Below, piece by piece: positions 34,732 to 37,337 of a stretch of 64,000 bases of DNA (its first letter is position 1; each line of letters starts with the position of its first letter). The notes under the pieces were generated by a model. That model was given only the letters and a program-made list of their open reading frames with translations. It did not search any database and was not told where the DNA came from. This stretch comes from Klebsiella phage phi1_146029: the sequence record PP889479.1. The stretch is one strand, 5' to 3'. The translations under genes were made by a program, and so were the position numbers.

Positions 34732-37337
34732 AAAATCTTTTAATTCATATTGTCGTGGACAATACCAAGACAGAGGGTTGGAATCTCTTGTCCTATAGCG
34801 ACCCATAAACCGTTTGATCAGTCCGGCCTAAAGGATTACCCACGACAATATGAACTGCTTACTCTTTGGTCTGGGGGAGGATTTACCTCCCCCATTCCTC
34901 CCGGTTTGGGCAGCGATCTCTCACTCAACCAGGGCGCCGGCAAATTTTAGATCAATTCTACAGGTTTGTAACCGCGCTGTCGCCAAGTCATGTTGCTTCT
35001 CCTATCATTATTTGACCGCACTTATGGCGGGCCGGGTTGTAATAGTTGAGTTGTGATCAACCAAGGGCTGCTAGACCTTTTATCCCGTTTGCGCATGATC
35101 AGTTCATGCGAGTCTTATCAAGCACCTTACGGCAACTCTTCTGGATGTCATCGCCCTGCTGTCAGGCTCATCCCAGGAGTTTATTTTTCCAGGGCTTTCC
35201 ACTTACAAGTCTTAACCAGACCGGGATACGGGCTTGTAAGATCGGGTTGGACACAACTTTGAGGACACTGACGACGTCTACTAGTCACCCATAACTGATA
35301 TTCGGATGCCAGTATCCTCAAAGTTGCAACCAATGTCGCAACTCGCACCTGAGTGAAAGTCAGGCACTTGTCTATTCGCTAGACCAGGCTGTTTGGTGTC
35401 GGGTGCCTCCCGATGACCTTACCACGGAAAACAAGGCCGGGTGTGATGAAACCATCAGACTCAAGGAGATGAGACTATTCCGTTCCCTCTTGCGCTTAGC
35501 AGAATTCACCAAACATAGCAGCATCTATACAGAAGCAACTTGTCCTCTAACGCTCGGACCAAACGAGGCTGGCTGGTTGATTCAGAGCCGCTGGTTGCTC
35601 CAGCAAGCATGGGTTGATAGCCCGGCGACATAGAATCACCCAAAGATGAAGAACATTCATGACTCACACCACACCACGAATGGCCTGAAAGAGAATCGAA
35701 CTCTTTAAATGCTCTTCATTTTGTGAACTTGAGAATACTACGCCTGTCTCGGGTTTCCCCTTAGTTCGGCCTCCCAATCCTCGCCGCGCCGGGTAGCTAA
35801 CCCTGATGGCTCGTCTGCTACTGAGTTCTTCTTGGTGCCCACCAGTGTTTGGAATGTGTAGGCATCGCAATCTGCAAGGCGTGGTCTTTTTCACCCAACG
35901 CTCTCTCAAGTTCACAAATCGAAGTGCCCTGACTCAACAGTTGTGGCCCAACATATTGTTATCATCTACCGGGCTGGCCGTCCACTTTGTAGATCAACCT
36001 TTGGGTTTAAGATAAATTGTCAAGGCACTTCGATTTGTGTGGATGTCATGCAAGACCGGGTGTCTGCCAGATCACCAGACATTGTGTTCAGTTTTGAACA
36101 GAGGTTGTAGGGTTATGAACCGCAACATGTCTTCAAACCTTGCACAATGAAATGTCATCTCAGTCCTGAATCACGTTCACGGTGGTGAGCCATTACAAGT
36201 GAGAACCGATTTGCATTTACCTTGCATTCCATCTTTGAGAGCATTCAGTGTACAACAGGCTCCGATATTGACTAGCGCTATTCCGGCGTCGGATTTAAGT
36301 TGCCTTTCCTCTGAAGTTCCATGCAGTTTCGCGTCTGACGCGGAATGCCCTCAAAGATGGAGCCGTTTTAGTCGGCGGGAGCTTATTAATCACACCCTCC
36401 CGCCTATTGTTAGTGCGCCGAATTTTGTTATGAGGAATCGGAAGACCTCACTGACTTATAGGCTATTACGCCGCCATCAGAACTTCGGAATCATTAGCAG
36501 TTATTTGCTTGGTCAGTTTCTAAAAACCCGCAAAGTCACGCACAACGAGAACGAAAACCTGTTTGAGCACAAGACACCATGTCCTGGGTTCACATCGAAG
36601 TGTTTGTCTAATGCCCAAACAGCTTTTCTCTCAGTGGGTTAACTATACTTTGTTAACCCTTATTGACAAAACTTTTTATTTGCCGGAACTTACGCATCCG
36701 GCCTCGTCCTGTTGGCGCTCCTAGAATCCGGGAAGACAGTAGGAACAATTATGTTACCAACAGGAAACCTTTGTGTTGCCCTTTGACGCAACATTATGAA
36801 CCCTCTTTAGAAGACTCATAATGTTGTCGGTGTGATGAGGATTACCAGCCCTCGACCTTCCCATCGTGCGGTGTCGACTCGCCGCCGGGATGCTCTCGTC
36901 TCCGCTTTGCGGGTACTTTTCTGAGCTAATCACACTTTCAACAGGGAGTTTCGTTCTCCGACGGTTGGTGCGTCCACCAACACCAGCAGGGTTGCTGCGC
37001 TGCCTCTATTCACACAAGCCCCTGAGACTAGGGGTTAACTGGTTTCGGGTTCAAGCCTACTCCCACTGTGCTGTTTCCCTTGAAATTTTATGATACTGCA
37101 ACACGGCTAATTTGAAAAGTCCTCTCCTCTTGAGCAACAGGACCTGAAATCCTGCGGCGAACCTCTGCTCAAAACCCGGTGCGCTATCGAAGGCGCTTTA
37201 CCAGAGTAAACATCGGGTGTTCCTAGGAGAGTGAAGGCCATCCCGATGATGAGGATAAGGAGTAACGTTATGATTGTCATACTGTTCCCTCCCTTCCATG
37301 CAACTTACTTTACTGTAATTCTGTATTGAATAAAGCG
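34732..37337. ncRNA. ORF-free, hairpin-rich 2.6-kb region; candidate large structured noncoding RNA(s)
   Basis: No ORF >150 aa on either strand (the only long frame is S/P/R-rich, no RBS); multiple perfect local and long-range inverted repeats; adjacent to tRNA cluster. Confidence 0.3.

Follow-up and report, generated by a model that had tools for sequence, protein, structure and literature searches.

Structured RNAs in and beside phage tRNA clusters

Phage tRNAs are thought to be accessory factors in translation, and the tRNA region of phage T4 also gives rise to species 1 and 2 (RNA C and RNA D), which share their precursors with the T4 tRNAs and are presumably processed by the host. Noncoding structured RNAs of the GOLLD and ROOL type adjoin phage tRNA genes as well. 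The STnc100/PasD-type sRNA family is, apart from the case presented below, known from lambdoid prophages. In tmRNA (SsrA), the trinucleotide AUA at positions -6 to -4 sets the frame of the tag. The phage tmRNAs named in PMC4131195 are those of mycobacteriophages and Bacillus phage G, and mycobacteriophage DS6A possesses a tmRNA consisting of the tRNA-like domain only, which inhibits tmRNA (PMC4131195, PMC11915505). In Stx phages, STnc100 is located in the late region downstream of stx2 (PMC12370729), and the related PasD sRNAs, which occur in lambdoid and Stx prophages, are reported to bind Hfq (bioRxiv 10.64898/2026.05.13.724894).

The stretch of DNA analysed here (the window) comprises 64,000 nt of Klebsiella phage phi1_146029 (PP889479.1), a Taipeivirus-like member of the Ackermannviridae. 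We consider it likely that its region 34732-37106 is the larger part of a ~4-kb RNA-gene island of ~13 separately folding minus-strand cassettes, which would be processed into stable RNAs acting in trans. Five tRNA genes are situated downstream of the array on the same strand. The locus can be likened by its setting to that of T4, where small stable non-tRNA RNAs are also encoded on the same strand within the tRNA cluster of a virulent phage, although T4 has two such RNAs and the 2.4 kb examined here accommodate about 13 cassettes, whose repertoire varies. With GOLLD and ROOL it shares the noncoding and structured character and the position beside phage tRNA genes, but it has no Rfam match to them and is modular rather than a single fold.

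A gene-free region next to tRNA-Met

It was proposed in the initial annotation that the 2.6 kb between 34732 and 37337 carry no credible ORF on either strand. This is true of 34732-37106; a 57-aa gene on the minus strand occupies 37107-37280, so the ORF-free span shrinks to 2,375 nt. The 57-aa protein has a hydrophobic N-terminus, which is conserved across genera, a strong ribosome-binding site (GGAGGG) and a match to phrog_8415 (E 1e-28). This ORF lacks codon periodicity and, compared with Kuttervirus, has a frame-shifted C-terminus; its 3′ half may therefore be RNA. It is the only real-looking gene in 34732-37337 and lies outside the RNA array.

The left border of the gene-free stretch is the tRNA-Met gene (34656-34731, minus strand). 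From there to 37106 the longest ORF of the plus strand codes for 147 aa (36199-36642) and that of the minus strand for 83 aa. The former had been judged not to look like a protein, and it indeed has no match in Pfam or PHROGs and extends over cassettes which relatives lack or carry in divergent form. None of the eight gap ORFs tested against Pfam, the 147-aa ORF included, gave a match, and the sole PHROGs match among the gap ORFs tested belongs to the ORF 34576-34806, which overlaps tRNA-Met. No 3-nt (codon) periodicity was detected in the variable columns of any gap tile with enough sequences (p 0.39-0.98), while 10 of the 12 flanking coding tiles were periodic at the same 77-90% identity (p 1e-5 to 1e-12). 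The region 34732-37106 is noncoding. Some depositors annotate a cluster of very small protein genes at this place, with 9-15 'hypothetical proteins' in several GenBank records; other records annotate none, and the calls are inconsistent and fall on both strands. Given also the absent periodicity, the lack of family matches save for the ORF overlapping tRNA-Met and the poor conservation of the cassettes under the 147-aa ORF, such a cluster is highly improbable.

Conserved folds and the strand of the RNAs

Each inverted repeat of the initial annotation was found in place when checked in the sequence, and the helices they form are genuine module-closing or terminal helices of cassettes. Six perfect inverted repeats (arms of 10 nt or more, within 200 nt) were counted in the region, compared with 0.3 ± 0.5 (maximum 3) in dinucleotide shuffles and a mean of 0.5 (maximum 3) in 22 other equal-sized tiles of the window. 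The supported helices are all local, spanning at most 200 nt.

The description of the region as highly structured applies to the comparative signal, which is strong, but to single-sequence folding only in patches. Sliding-window MFE z-scores range from -3 to -6 at 34680-34980, 35220-35400, 35640-35760 and 36540-36900 and are near 0 elsewhere, leaving about half of the region unremarkable, and the regional mean does not differ significantly from that of coding controls (p = 0.14). Comparative folding was therefore taken as the main evidence. On the minus strand, 210-nt tiles have consensus energies of -31 to -52 kcal/mol, whereas coding tiles of equal divergence reach -1 to -24; consensus-structure energies are two- to ten-fold below the coding controls. 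Compensatory pairs are seen in nearly every cassette, with counts inflated by the relatedness of the sequences and by the prediction of structures from the same alignments. Several cassettes have 3-6 distinct homologues each, and their folds are predictions; formal shuffle tests were passed by two cassettes (36370-36551 and 35052-35255). The folds are conserved with compensatory changes, as had been expected of a noncoding region with RNA secondary structure beside tRNA genes.

No strand had been proposed earlier. The RNAs are on the minus strand, the same as the tRNAs. G-U pairs of this strand are A-C mismatches on the opposite one, and for 14 of 15 cassettes the consensus energy is lower on the minus strand. 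One cassette, the tmRNA-like element described below, has 156 tRNAs in the vicinity of 139 copies, every one of them co-oriented with it, and promoters lie upstream when read in the minus orientation. Lying at the boundary of divergently transcribed gene blocks, a long stretch devoid of ORFs and rich in inverted repeats might also be a DNA-level element, namely a replication origin, a packaging site or a recombination hotspot with hairpins formed in DNA. We find this very improbable, as the strand-asymmetric G-U pairs and the lower energies on one strand point to RNA, one cassette exceeds its Rfam threshold, the tRNAs are uniformly co-oriented and an essential origin would not be expected to vary so much in content among close relatives; incidental inspection showed neither iterons nor tandem repeats.

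Organization of the cassette array

The array consists of about 13 cassettes of 70-220 nt, most of them closed by their own helix. It had been put forward as a candidate large ornate RNA of the GOLLD/ROOL type, and an ORF-free, conserved region with many helices beside phage tRNA genes is compatible with the whole 2.4 kb being a single functional fold; since there is no intrinsic terminator inside the region, a single primary transcript is plausible. Nevertheless, no GOLLD, ROOL, HEARO, OLE, raiA, group I or II intron or RNase P match was obtained at the gathering threshold in the window, nor at E <= 1 in 33000-38200, nor in 14 related loci, and the Rfam search that had been recommended returned only tRNAs and STnc100 at gathering and E-value thresholds. 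Relatives keep some pieces and drop others with the rest intact, the pieces have their own helices, there is a promoter-like site inside, and one piece, the tmRNA-like element, stands alone in 105 non-Ackermannviridae loci. One large RNA is thus hardly credible. Several smaller stable RNAs, named initially as an alternative, are favoured by the modularity, the individual helices and the stand-alone occurrence.

Three cassettes, 35255->35052, 35543->35329 and 36551->36370, are solidly supported and are described in the next sections. The remaining ones, all on the minus strand, are presented here in the order of reading, with consensus energies for the minus versus the plus strand. The cassette adjoining the small ORF (36921-37106) holds the previously noted GGAGTTTCGTTCTCC and CCCCT..AGGGG hairpins, has 14 distinct homologues, 45 pairs, 7 of them compensatory, and energies of -37.1 versus -25.1, and lacks codon periodicity. 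It is followed by one or more structured cassettes in 36675-36920 (17 homologues, 53 pairs, 12 compensatory), which include a hairpin of 11 perfect base pairs (36789-36799 with 36816-36826) and, at ~36690-36712, a 3′ hairpin. A long irregular hairpin (36549-36640; MFE z-score about -6, 17 homologues, -26.5 versus -14.4) leads from the promoter to the tmRNA-like element. The cassette 36228-36361 is closed by a helix of ~17 bp with a perfect 12-bp core (36228-36239 with 36350-36361) and has 8 homologues and 42 pairs, 2 of them compensatory (-49.5 versus -41.6), while 36044-36227 is a variable cassette of the closest relatives only (3 homologues), poorly aligned or absent in other genera.

The 16-bp helix noted initially (35913-35928 with 36024-36039, perfect arms) belongs to the ~20-bp closing helix of the cassette 35909-36043, which lies within a 16-sequence alignment with 76 pairs, 18 of them compensatory (-82.7 versus -59.3). 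The cassette 35720-35918, with a perfect 15-bp closing helix (35720-35734 with 35904-35918), is missing in Agtrevirus and Dickeya phages. One or more cassettes occupy 35545-35718, where a ~36-nt block (35538-35573) is retained in most Ackermannviridae genera sampled and the stretch 35563-35643 shows 84% identity to the tRNA region of Tribble_ER49, another Klebsiella phage. Between the STnc100 homologue and the 204-nt RNA there is a near-perfect hairpin of ~19 bp (35254-35326) with perfect 12-bp arms, for which 4 distinct sequences (the window and 3 homologues) give 28 pairs, 3 of them compensatory (-34.8 versus -21.7). The segment 34860-35050, one or more cassettes including the gggggagg/cctccccc hairpin pointed out earlier, has MFE z-scores of -3 to -5.7, 5 homologues and 49 pairs, 4 of them compensatory; it is assigned to the minus strand, with energies of -53.6 versus -54.7 that do not resolve the strand. 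In the last cassette (34742-34856) the repeat 34748-34758/34840-34850 of the initial annotation is real and extends to a perfect 15-bp closing helix (34744-34758 with 34840-34854); 4 distinct sequences (the window and 3 homologues) give 44 pairs, 5 of them compensatory (-52.3 versus -37.8).

Transcription signals

The best hit of the promoter scan (10/12) is a sigma-70-like promoter TTGTCA-16-TATAGT at 36642-36669 on the minus strand, which points into the irregular hairpin and the tmRNA-like element. The -10 box TATAGT is retained in Kuttervirus, Taipeivirus and Erwinia phage Bue1 with a varying spacer, and the T1-like phage DS8 has TTGACA-17-TAGATT at the equivalent place. A strong intrinsic terminator with a 10-bp GC-rich stem followed by a U tract (33143-33166, minus strand) is the sole such site on this strand from 37106 to 33143; situated at the far end of the tRNA cluster, it is probably the end of the transcription unit.

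We infer that the array is transcribed by read-through from upstream genes and from the internal promoter 36669->36642, and that transcription runs on through the tRNAs to the terminator 33166->33143. RNase III would cut the precursor at the 12-20-bp closing helices, going by helix length alone, and RNase P and RNase E would cut around the tRNAs, releasing stable RNAs. As for the function of the cassettes, the products may serve in trans as accessory factors, with host RNA metabolism and translation as their targets. A literature search, partly off-target, returned no transcriptome or noncoding-RNA study of the Ackermannviridae.

The 204-nt RNA and the STnc100 homologue

The ~204-nt RNA (35255->35052) has an 11-bp closing helix around a multi-helix core, a GNRA tetraloop and an invariant single-stranded GGAAAGCCCUGGAAAAAUAAAC. 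It is 80-87% conserved across five genera, and the alignment of nine phages from these genera (A2) contains 58 pairs with 98.5% of cells paired, including 26 G-U cells. Compensatory changes occur in 13 pairs against 5.6 ± 1.4 in shuffles (0/500), and the closing helix itself covaries. A candidate pseudoknot, UAUCCCG/CGGGAUA, has all columns invariant. In IMG/VR, the core motif is confined to contigs of 152-162 kb; the first hairpin alone recurs between two tRNAs in the Stephanstirmvirinae phage KP13-26, with a compensatory stem change. This is a well-supported new, undescribed structured RNA, the viral structured-RNA catalogue of PMC10690425 being outside the comparison. Its covariation suffices for structural and biochemical work.

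The cassette 35543->35329 matches the Rfam family STnc100 (RF02076) over the full model (1-206 of 206) with 51.6 bits against a gathering score of 47 (E 3.5e-8 for the whole window), including the conserved UGGUGAAU and the CGGGAGGCACCCG..CACCA core, and by its sequence is a homologue of STnc100/PasD-type sRNAs with recognisable ancestry. It differs in being placed inside an array of a virulent myovirus and in having no U-tract terminator: at the 3′ end of the cassette the hairpin aligns and is followed by GCGACAUUGG, and the intrinsic terminator scan called none there. STnc100 was also detected in Serratia phage IME250 (48.7 bits). The cassette is carried by some Taipeivirus and Agtrevirus phages only and is missing in May, Kuttervirus, SKML-39 and Dickeya phages.

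A tmRNA-like element

The element at 36551->36370 has a short domain-closing helix (36532-36529 with 36417-36414) and a resume codon with a 10-codon tag, ANDSEVLMAA, at 36498->36469 (AUAACU|GCU AAU GAU UCC GAA GUU CUG AUG GCG GCG UAA UAG). The UAA stop (36468->36466), followed by an in-frame UAG, lies within a helix (36480-36477 with 36454-36451), after which come a hairpin (36450-36446 with 36435-36431), a covarying pseudoknot (36441-36438 with 36421-36418) and a 3′ hairpin (36404-36397 with 36381-36374), which is the ggcgggag/ctcccgcc repeat and has a conserved loop GGUGUGAUUAAUAA. In an alignment of 40 diverse copies (A4), 97.2% of cells are paired and there are 75 double-change cells against 23.9 ± 5.7 in shuffles (0/500) and 0-3 in slid controls. 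Pairing is complete (100%) in both the stop helix CUGA/UCAG and the pseudoknot CCGA/UCGG, with A-U/G-C switches in both directions in 9-19 of the 40 sequences. The TAA stop is present in 40/40, and codons 1, 2, 7 and 10 vary only synonymously. Among 82 distinct copies there are 21 tag variants, every one of 10 codons.

The features shared with tmRNA include AUA at -6 to -4, a GCN resume codon, a short AND....AA tag of 10 codons ending in hydrophobic residues and Ala (ANDENYALAA in E. coli tmRNA), an in-frame UAA inside a helix (helix 5), a pseudoknot next to it and a short domain-closing helix; the coding piece of two-piece (permuted) tmRNA is the closest counterpart. The differences are the missing tRNA-like part, tags with LMAA or LAVA, not ALAA, at the end, and scores below the Rfam cutoffs. 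No tmRNA model reaches its gathering score: tmRNA_permuted gives a local match of 20.8 bits in the window and 26.3 bits in an E. coli prophage (gathering score 47), and beta_tmRNA a weak local match of 17.4 bits (gathering score 84). An ordinary small ORF was rejected, as there is an invariant in-frame UAG 8 codons upstream, neither an AUG, GUG or UUG start nor a ribosome-binding site, and, 5′ of the resume codon, no variation at any of the three codon positions. The conserved stretch upstream of the tag was likewise dismissed as a promoter, an acceptable -35/-10 pair being seen by eye on neither strand.

In both model alignments the tRNA-like portion of beta_tmRNA and tmRNA_permuted (100-127 nt) is skipped. 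With ARAGORN, neither the window nor any of 139 contexts of the element gave a tmRNA call, and the whole DS8 genome gave neither a tRNA nor a tmRNA call. No T-loop motif (GGTTCRANNCC) was found within 34732-37106, and no acceptor-stem complementarity in the flanks of the element across variants. A tRNA-like RNA lies downstream in 14 of 92 non-Ackermannviridae contexts and is thus not a constant partner. These RNAs in T1-like and lambdoid contexts, the T-arm and CCA piece downstream in Kuttervirus and the tRNA-like RNAs 33205-33372 and 34548-34655 of the window were all discarded as the acceptor domain, being inconsistently linked to the element; G3-U70 is absent from all inspected candidates, one inspected downstream RNA having U3-A70.

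Phage records with the element number 549, and it was also found in 137 E. coli genomes, O26 strains among them. In E. coli 55989, the one locus examined, it lies between the prophage Q and holin genes, co-oriented with both, a niche equal to the late-region one of STnc100 in Stx phages. Neither a description of the element nor its core sequence was found in any paper. Judged from sequence comparison, it is a widespread, undescribed tmRNA relative with the tag-coding part and without a detectable tRNA-like part, and it appears to derive, with recognisable ancestry, from the tmRNA coding part. DS6A keeps the tRNA-like domain, and the element would be the reverse reduction. Trans-translation is its most likely target: it would either supply the tag template alongside a separate acceptor RNA or compete for the factors that bind tmRNA.

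It is a tentative and rather doubtful suggestion that the element is a working, horizontally mobile tag-template RNA which reprograms host trans-translation and resides in an RNA anti-defence-like island. Were it so, at least four phage families (Ackermannviridae, T1-like, N4-like and partly FelixO1-like) and lambdoid prophages would carry a tmRNA coding module, which would be either a new kind of split tmRNA adding phage-specified LMAA/LAVA tags or a means of titrating SmpB or other tmRNA partners so that tagging is off during infection. The island would then be an RNA counterpart of phage protein anti-defence islands, with the 204-nt RNA and others as further effector RNAs. A functional element would be the first case of phage manipulation of trans-translation via a template-only RNA; it is present in phages of the model hosts E. 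coli and Salmonella.

Comparison with relatives and mosaic nature

The gene-free gap recurs in every Ackermannviridae genus sampled, with cassettes present or absent among relatives. Yersinia phage CAU_YEP3 lacks the whole island and its tRNAs, so the island can be dispensed with, at least in some conditions. At least one cassette, along with portions of two more, is common to unrelated phage families, the sharing involving T1-like, N4-like and FelixO1-like phages and a lambdoid prophage (one locus inspected). For cassettes other than the tmRNA-like element, nhmmer gave no match outside the Ackermannviridae except a weak one for 35545-35718. The flanking 202-aa protein has only 5 near-identical loci in IMG/VR. 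As RNA cassettes are swapped among unrelated phages, in or beside tRNA clusters or in a prophage late leader, this suggests that tRNA clusters are hubs for accessory RNA genes generally.

The presence/absence polymorphism with a common insertion point could also come from junk or selfish DNA, that is, decayed tRNAs, homing-endonuclease scars and MITE-like elements giving functionless RNA. HNH endonuclease genes are inserted in the same gap of relatives, one relative lives without the island, inverted repeats bound the cassettes and relatives contain T-arm-bearing relics. Decayed tRNAs had been considered from the start and account for fragments at most: a 3′ remnant AAAACGGCUCCA at ~36370, tRNA-like relics just outside the range (34548-34655 and 33205-33372) and others in relatives; within 34732-37106 there is neither a tRNA call nor a T-loop. 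Besides, internal helices and not just the ends hold their pairing through compensatory and G-U changes, the closing helices covary, unlike the fixed sequence of a transposase site, the 204-nt RNA is conserved across its five genera, and the tag frame keeps its exact length in all distinct copies. Functionless DNA is therefore unlikely. In hundreds of therapeutic-candidate phages (Kuttervirus, Taipeivirus, T1-like and N4-like) the stretch is unannotated or filled with spurious "hypothetical proteins"; its reading as an RNA-gene island corrects such records and yields at least two well-supported undescribed RNAs.

Two further unannotated minus-strand cassettes (34469-34655) lie just outside 34732-37337, between tRNA-Met and a 74-aa ORF. 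A CRISPR-repeat similarity at ~34520 was judged coincidental. This block is missing in IME250, CBA120 and SKML-39 and shows 94-97% identity in Salmonella and Dickeya phages against ~78% for the neighbouring sequence, another point against junk. The upstream cassette (34655->34548) folds as a four-way junction with a GCCA end, and the junction at ~34548 is interrupted in relatives: Vi01 has a tRNA there, and a Dickeya phage and phage May have inserts of ~190 nt.

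Genomic setting and coding content

The gap beside the tRNA cluster, pointed out in the initial annotation, is real and significant. It is made up of conserved RNA domains that fold independently of one another and form a noncoding array on the minus strand. Positions 34400-37400 share 99% identity with Klebsiella phage FKP14 and 96-98% with Menlow, Magnus and 0507-KN2-1, all members of the genus Taipeivirus of the Ackermannviridae. Weaker matches occur in 301 phage records, among which Ackermannviridae of Salmonella, Klebsiella, Escherichia and Dickeya predominate. The gap is bordered on the left by five tRNA genes (Gln, Tyr, Asn, Trp and Met) at 33376-34731 and on the right by a 202-aa ORF at 37338-37946, all on the minus strand.

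Between tRNA-Met and position 37106 the longest ORFs are 147 aa on the plus strand and 83 aa on the minus strand. A Pfam scan of eight ORFs from the gap gave no match, and in a PHROG scan the sole match among the same eight was the ORF overlapping tRNA-Met. The whole of 34732-37337 had been described as free of ORFs, which holds as far as 37106 but not at the right end, where a minus-strand 57-aa ORF (37107-37280) with a GGAGGG ribosome-binding site, a phrog_8415 match and an N-terminus kept in Vi01, CBA120, AG3 and SKML-39 is probably a real small membrane protein. The C-terminus of this ORF is frame-shifted relative to Kuttervirus (57 aa versus 48 aa). The ORF lacks codon periodicity, and its alignment gives a strong RNA consensus structure (-45.7 kcal/mol, 10 compensatory pairs); its 3' half may double as RNA. 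A 74-aa minus-strand ORF (34231-34455), located between tRNA-Trp and the neighboring RNA cassettes, matches only the middle of the phrog_3684 profile (positions 114-186 of 262) and may be a truncated gene; in the FKP14 record an "RNA ligase" is annotated somewhere under the stretch matching the window.

The ORF-free gap between the tRNA cluster and the genes beside the gp6 baseplate-wedge gene recurs in relatives, measuring 4.1 kb without annotated CDSs in Vi01 (tRNAs included), 2.2 kb in CBA120, 1.85 kb in AG3, 2.1 kb in Erwinia phage Bue1 and 1.2 kb in Dickeya phage Ds20CZ, and is also present in Serratia phages IME250 and KNP4. In Yersinia phage CAU_YEP3, of the same family, both the RNA island and the tRNAs are missing from this locus; the homologue of the 202-aa gene is followed by 460 nt and then by structural genes. 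Variable columns were counted by codon phase in 210-nt tiles, each aligned with 5-17 distinct homologues. No 3-nt periodicity was found in any noncoding tile with enough sequences (p 0.39-0.98), whereas at equal identity (77-90%) 10 of the 12 control tiles from the 202-aa and gp6 genes were periodic (p 1e-5 to 1e-12). The noncoding tiles, folded as minus strand, had RNAalifold consensus energies of -31 to -52 kcal/mol, versus -1 to -24 kcal/mol for the coding tiles.

A mosaic of RNA cassettes

All the inverted repeats quoted in the initial annotation were found at the positions given there. The region contains six perfect inverted repeats whose arms measure 10 nt or more and lie no further than 200 nt apart, compared with 0.3 ± 0.5 in dinucleotide shuffles and a mean of 0.5 in 22 other tiles of the window. 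The description of the region as highly structured is borne out by single-sequence folding in four patches (z-scores of -3 to -6) but not elsewhere, where z-scores are near 0. The long perfect repeats are closing helices of single cassettes, i.e. separately folding RNA units of 70-220 nt (34744/34854, 35254/35326, 35720/35918, 35913/36039 and 36228/36361).

In an alignment of nine phages, from which the presence of each cassette was read, the blocks come and go independently of each other. The block with the STnc100-like RNA is found only in the window, in IME250 and, partly, in AG3; block 35720-35900 is absent from Agtrevirus and the Dickeya phages, and block 34469-34655 is wholly absent from IME250, CBA120 and SKML-39. 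At the junction near 34548 there is a tRNA in Vi01 and inserts of about 190 nt in the Dickeya phage and phage May, making it an insertion hotspot. In some relatives (CBA120, HMGUkp5, 0507-KN2-1, Maynard and SP1) the gap also contains genes for HNH homing endonucleases. The cassettes vary between relatives and move horizontally. The proposal of one large RNA is therefore wrong, as the cassettes are independent among relatives, have their own closing helices and contain no supported pair spanning more than about 200 nt; several small RNAs, presumably stable, had been offered as an alternative, and this is the right reading in the form of independently folding cassettes. For at least two RNAs of the island, no description was found in Rfam or the searchable literature. 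Most of the cassettes not treated individually below carry compensatory pairs (2-18 each, from few sequences), and these cassettes are considered candidates.

The HNH gene of CBA120, orf221 (7969-8382 in locus L017), overlaps the start of tRNA-Met. Segment 35563-35643 shows 84% identity to a segment beside tRNA-Gln in the 77-kb Klebsiella phage Tribble_ER49 (2501-2581 in locus L149), annotated there as part of a hypothetical protein, and is another cassette common to different phage families.

Strand and transcription

The RNAs are assigned to the minus strand because the folds are more stable there, contain G-U pairs and are co-oriented with tRNAs. The minus-strand consensus fold is the more stable one in 14 of 15 cassettes (e.g. 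-82.7 vs -59.3 and -52.3 vs -37.8), both formally tested folds, those of the tmRNA-like element and the 204-nt RNA, include G-U pairs, which on the opposite strand would turn into A-C mismatches, and the 156 tRNAs located in the interval from -1.5 to +2.5 kb around 139 copies of the tmRNA-like element all have its orientation. The best promoter-like site on this strand, TTGTCA-16-TATAGT (36669->36642), has a -10 element held across genera and a variable spacer, and the only strong minus-strand terminator (33166->33143) lies beyond the tRNAs. A transcription unit probably runs through the cassettes into the tRNAs. Host RNase III would cleave the transcript at closing helices of 12-20 bp, RNases P and E would do so near the tRNAs, and the RNAs set free would act in trans on RNA metabolism or on translation in the host.

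The tmRNA-like element

The cassette 36551->36370 resembles the message part of tmRNA. As in tmRNA, AUA at -6 to -4 is followed by a GCN resume codon; from this start there are exactly ten codons and then UAA. The window encodes the tag ANDSEVLMAA, compared with ANDENYALAA in E. coli SsrA, and the 82 distinct copies include 21 variants, such as ANDDVVLMAA (T1-like phages and prophage), ANDNTFLAVA (Vi01 and CBA120) and ANEEMYLAVA. Codons 1, 2, 7 and 10 show synonymous changes only; a polar residue is always present at position 4 and a hydrophobic or aromatic one at position 6. The stop codon lies inside a covarying helix, followed by a hairpin whose loop pairs downstream to form a pseudoknot, with the pairing alternating between CCGA/UCGG, CCAG/CUGG and CCAA/UUGG, and the domain is closed by a short helix. 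Pairing holds in 97.2% of the cells of this fold, and double changes affect 75 cells versus 23.9 ± 5.7 in shuffled alignments (0/500).

Matches were found in 549 phage records, almost always without annotation, including Ackermannviridae, T1-like siphoviruses (e.g. DS8, CS01 and GP-1), N4-like Gamaleyavirus (e.g. IME11), Erwinia phages of about 84 kb (e.g. SunLIRen and Panisse) and, as a partial match, Felixounavirus, as well as in 137 of 5,426 complete E. coli genomes. In E. coli 55989 the element sits between the genes for antiterminator Q and the holin, in the same orientation as both. Segment 36405-36565 is 99.4% identical to Escherichia Kuttervirus EP75 and only 78% identical to Menlow, which outside the element shares about 96% identity with the window, and this suggests that alleles were exchanged between genera.

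Rfam models beta_tmRNA and tmRNA_permuted align locally to the message region, skipping their 100-127-nt tRNA-like part. No tRNA-like domain was detected for the element. ARAGORN made no tmRNA call in the window or in 139 contexts of the element, nor any tRNA or tmRNA call in the whole DS8 genome; the flanks of the element show no complementarity, and a tRNA-like RNA follows it in only 14 of 92 contexts outside Ackermannviridae. Conservation of the tag at the peptide level argues that it is read by ribosomes, which would require an acceptor RNA in trans; alternatively, the element may serve as a decoy for partners of tmRNA. Phage tmRNAs are named in the literature from mycobacteriophages and Bacillus phage G, and the sole reduced one described shows the opposite reduction: the RNA of DS6A consists of the tRNA-like domain only (PMC4131195, PMC11915505).

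The 204-nt RNA and the STnc100-like RNA

The 204-nt RNA (35255->35052) is represented by nine sequences from five genera with 80-87% identity and has no matching family in Rfam. Its consensus fold comprises a closing helix of 11 bp, a hairpin whose 23-nt loop is invariant, a core of three helices with a GNRA tetraloop, and an invariant single-stranded GGAAAGCCCUGGAAAAAUAAAC. Of its cells, 98.5% are paired over 58 pairs, 13 of which show compensatory change versus 5.6 ± 1.4 in shuffles (0/500) and 0-2 in slid controls. The invariant motif was found in only 21 IMG/VR contigs, all of 152-162 kb. In phage KP13-26 (Stephanstirmvirinae), the first hairpin occurs on its own between tRNA-Thr and tRNA-Asn, and its stem carries a compensatory change.

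The STnc100-like RNA (35543->35329) is a full-length match to Rfam RF02076 (51.6 bits, gathering score 47). It shares with the family UGGUGAAU and the CGGGAGGCACCCG..CACCA core but is devoid of the U-tract terminator. STnc100, a relative of the Hfq-bound PasD sRNAs, is a prophage sRNA whose location in Stx phages is downstream of stx2 (PMC12370729; bioRxiv 10.64898/2026.05.13.724894).

Extent of the island and tRNA-like RNAs

The island runs past 34732-37337, taking in two highly conserved cassettes at 34469-34655 and a tRNA-like RNA at 33205-33372. Since the tRNA spacers at 33450-33870 (~420 nt) and 33942-34066 (~125 nt) likewise hold few ORFs and show partial conservation in Vi01, CBA120 and May, it probably spans about 33143-37106. 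The two minus-strand cassettes at 34469-34655 show 94-97% identity among Klebsiella, Salmonella and Dickeya phages, with about 78% in neighboring noncoding DNA, and the part 34655->34548 has a four-way junction fold with a GCCA end. The tRNA-like RNA 33205-33372 (minus strand), downstream of tRNA-Gln, is unannotated and was missed by both ARAGORN and Rfam. Its acceptor stem measures 7 bp (GGGUGCG/CGCACUC, with G2-U71), its T-arm is canonical (CUGGG-UUCGAUU-CCCGG) and is followed by UCCCA, and about 115 nt, including an 8-bp helix, stand in place of the D and anticodon arms.

Kinds of noncanonical tRNA-like RNA that ARAGORN does not call are also located about +230 to +400 nt past the tmRNA-like element in Kuttervirus phages and IME250 (loci L001, L012, L017 and L003). 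One has a T-arm followed by CUCCAAU-C-CCA; the second, of about 125 nt, reads GCCGUUA...UUCGACU...AAACGGC-U-CCA. The window retains just the last ~12 nt of the latter (AAAACGGCUCCA, ~36372-36361), which implies that the rest was deleted.

A recurring helix (..ACAACAGGUAAGAGCAUU ... AGUGCUCUUAUCGUUGUGG..) closes the cassettes that flank the tmRNA-like element in lambdoid and T1-like contexts, as in the E. coli 55989 prophage (L041, 4800-5600), DS8 (L147, 2350-3230) and three further loci (L046, L057 and L067). CACAAC and its complement GUUGUG recur many times in these contexts and allow alternative pairings, including the acceptor stem of the following tRNA-like RNA (UGUGGUG / CNCCACA plus T-arm).
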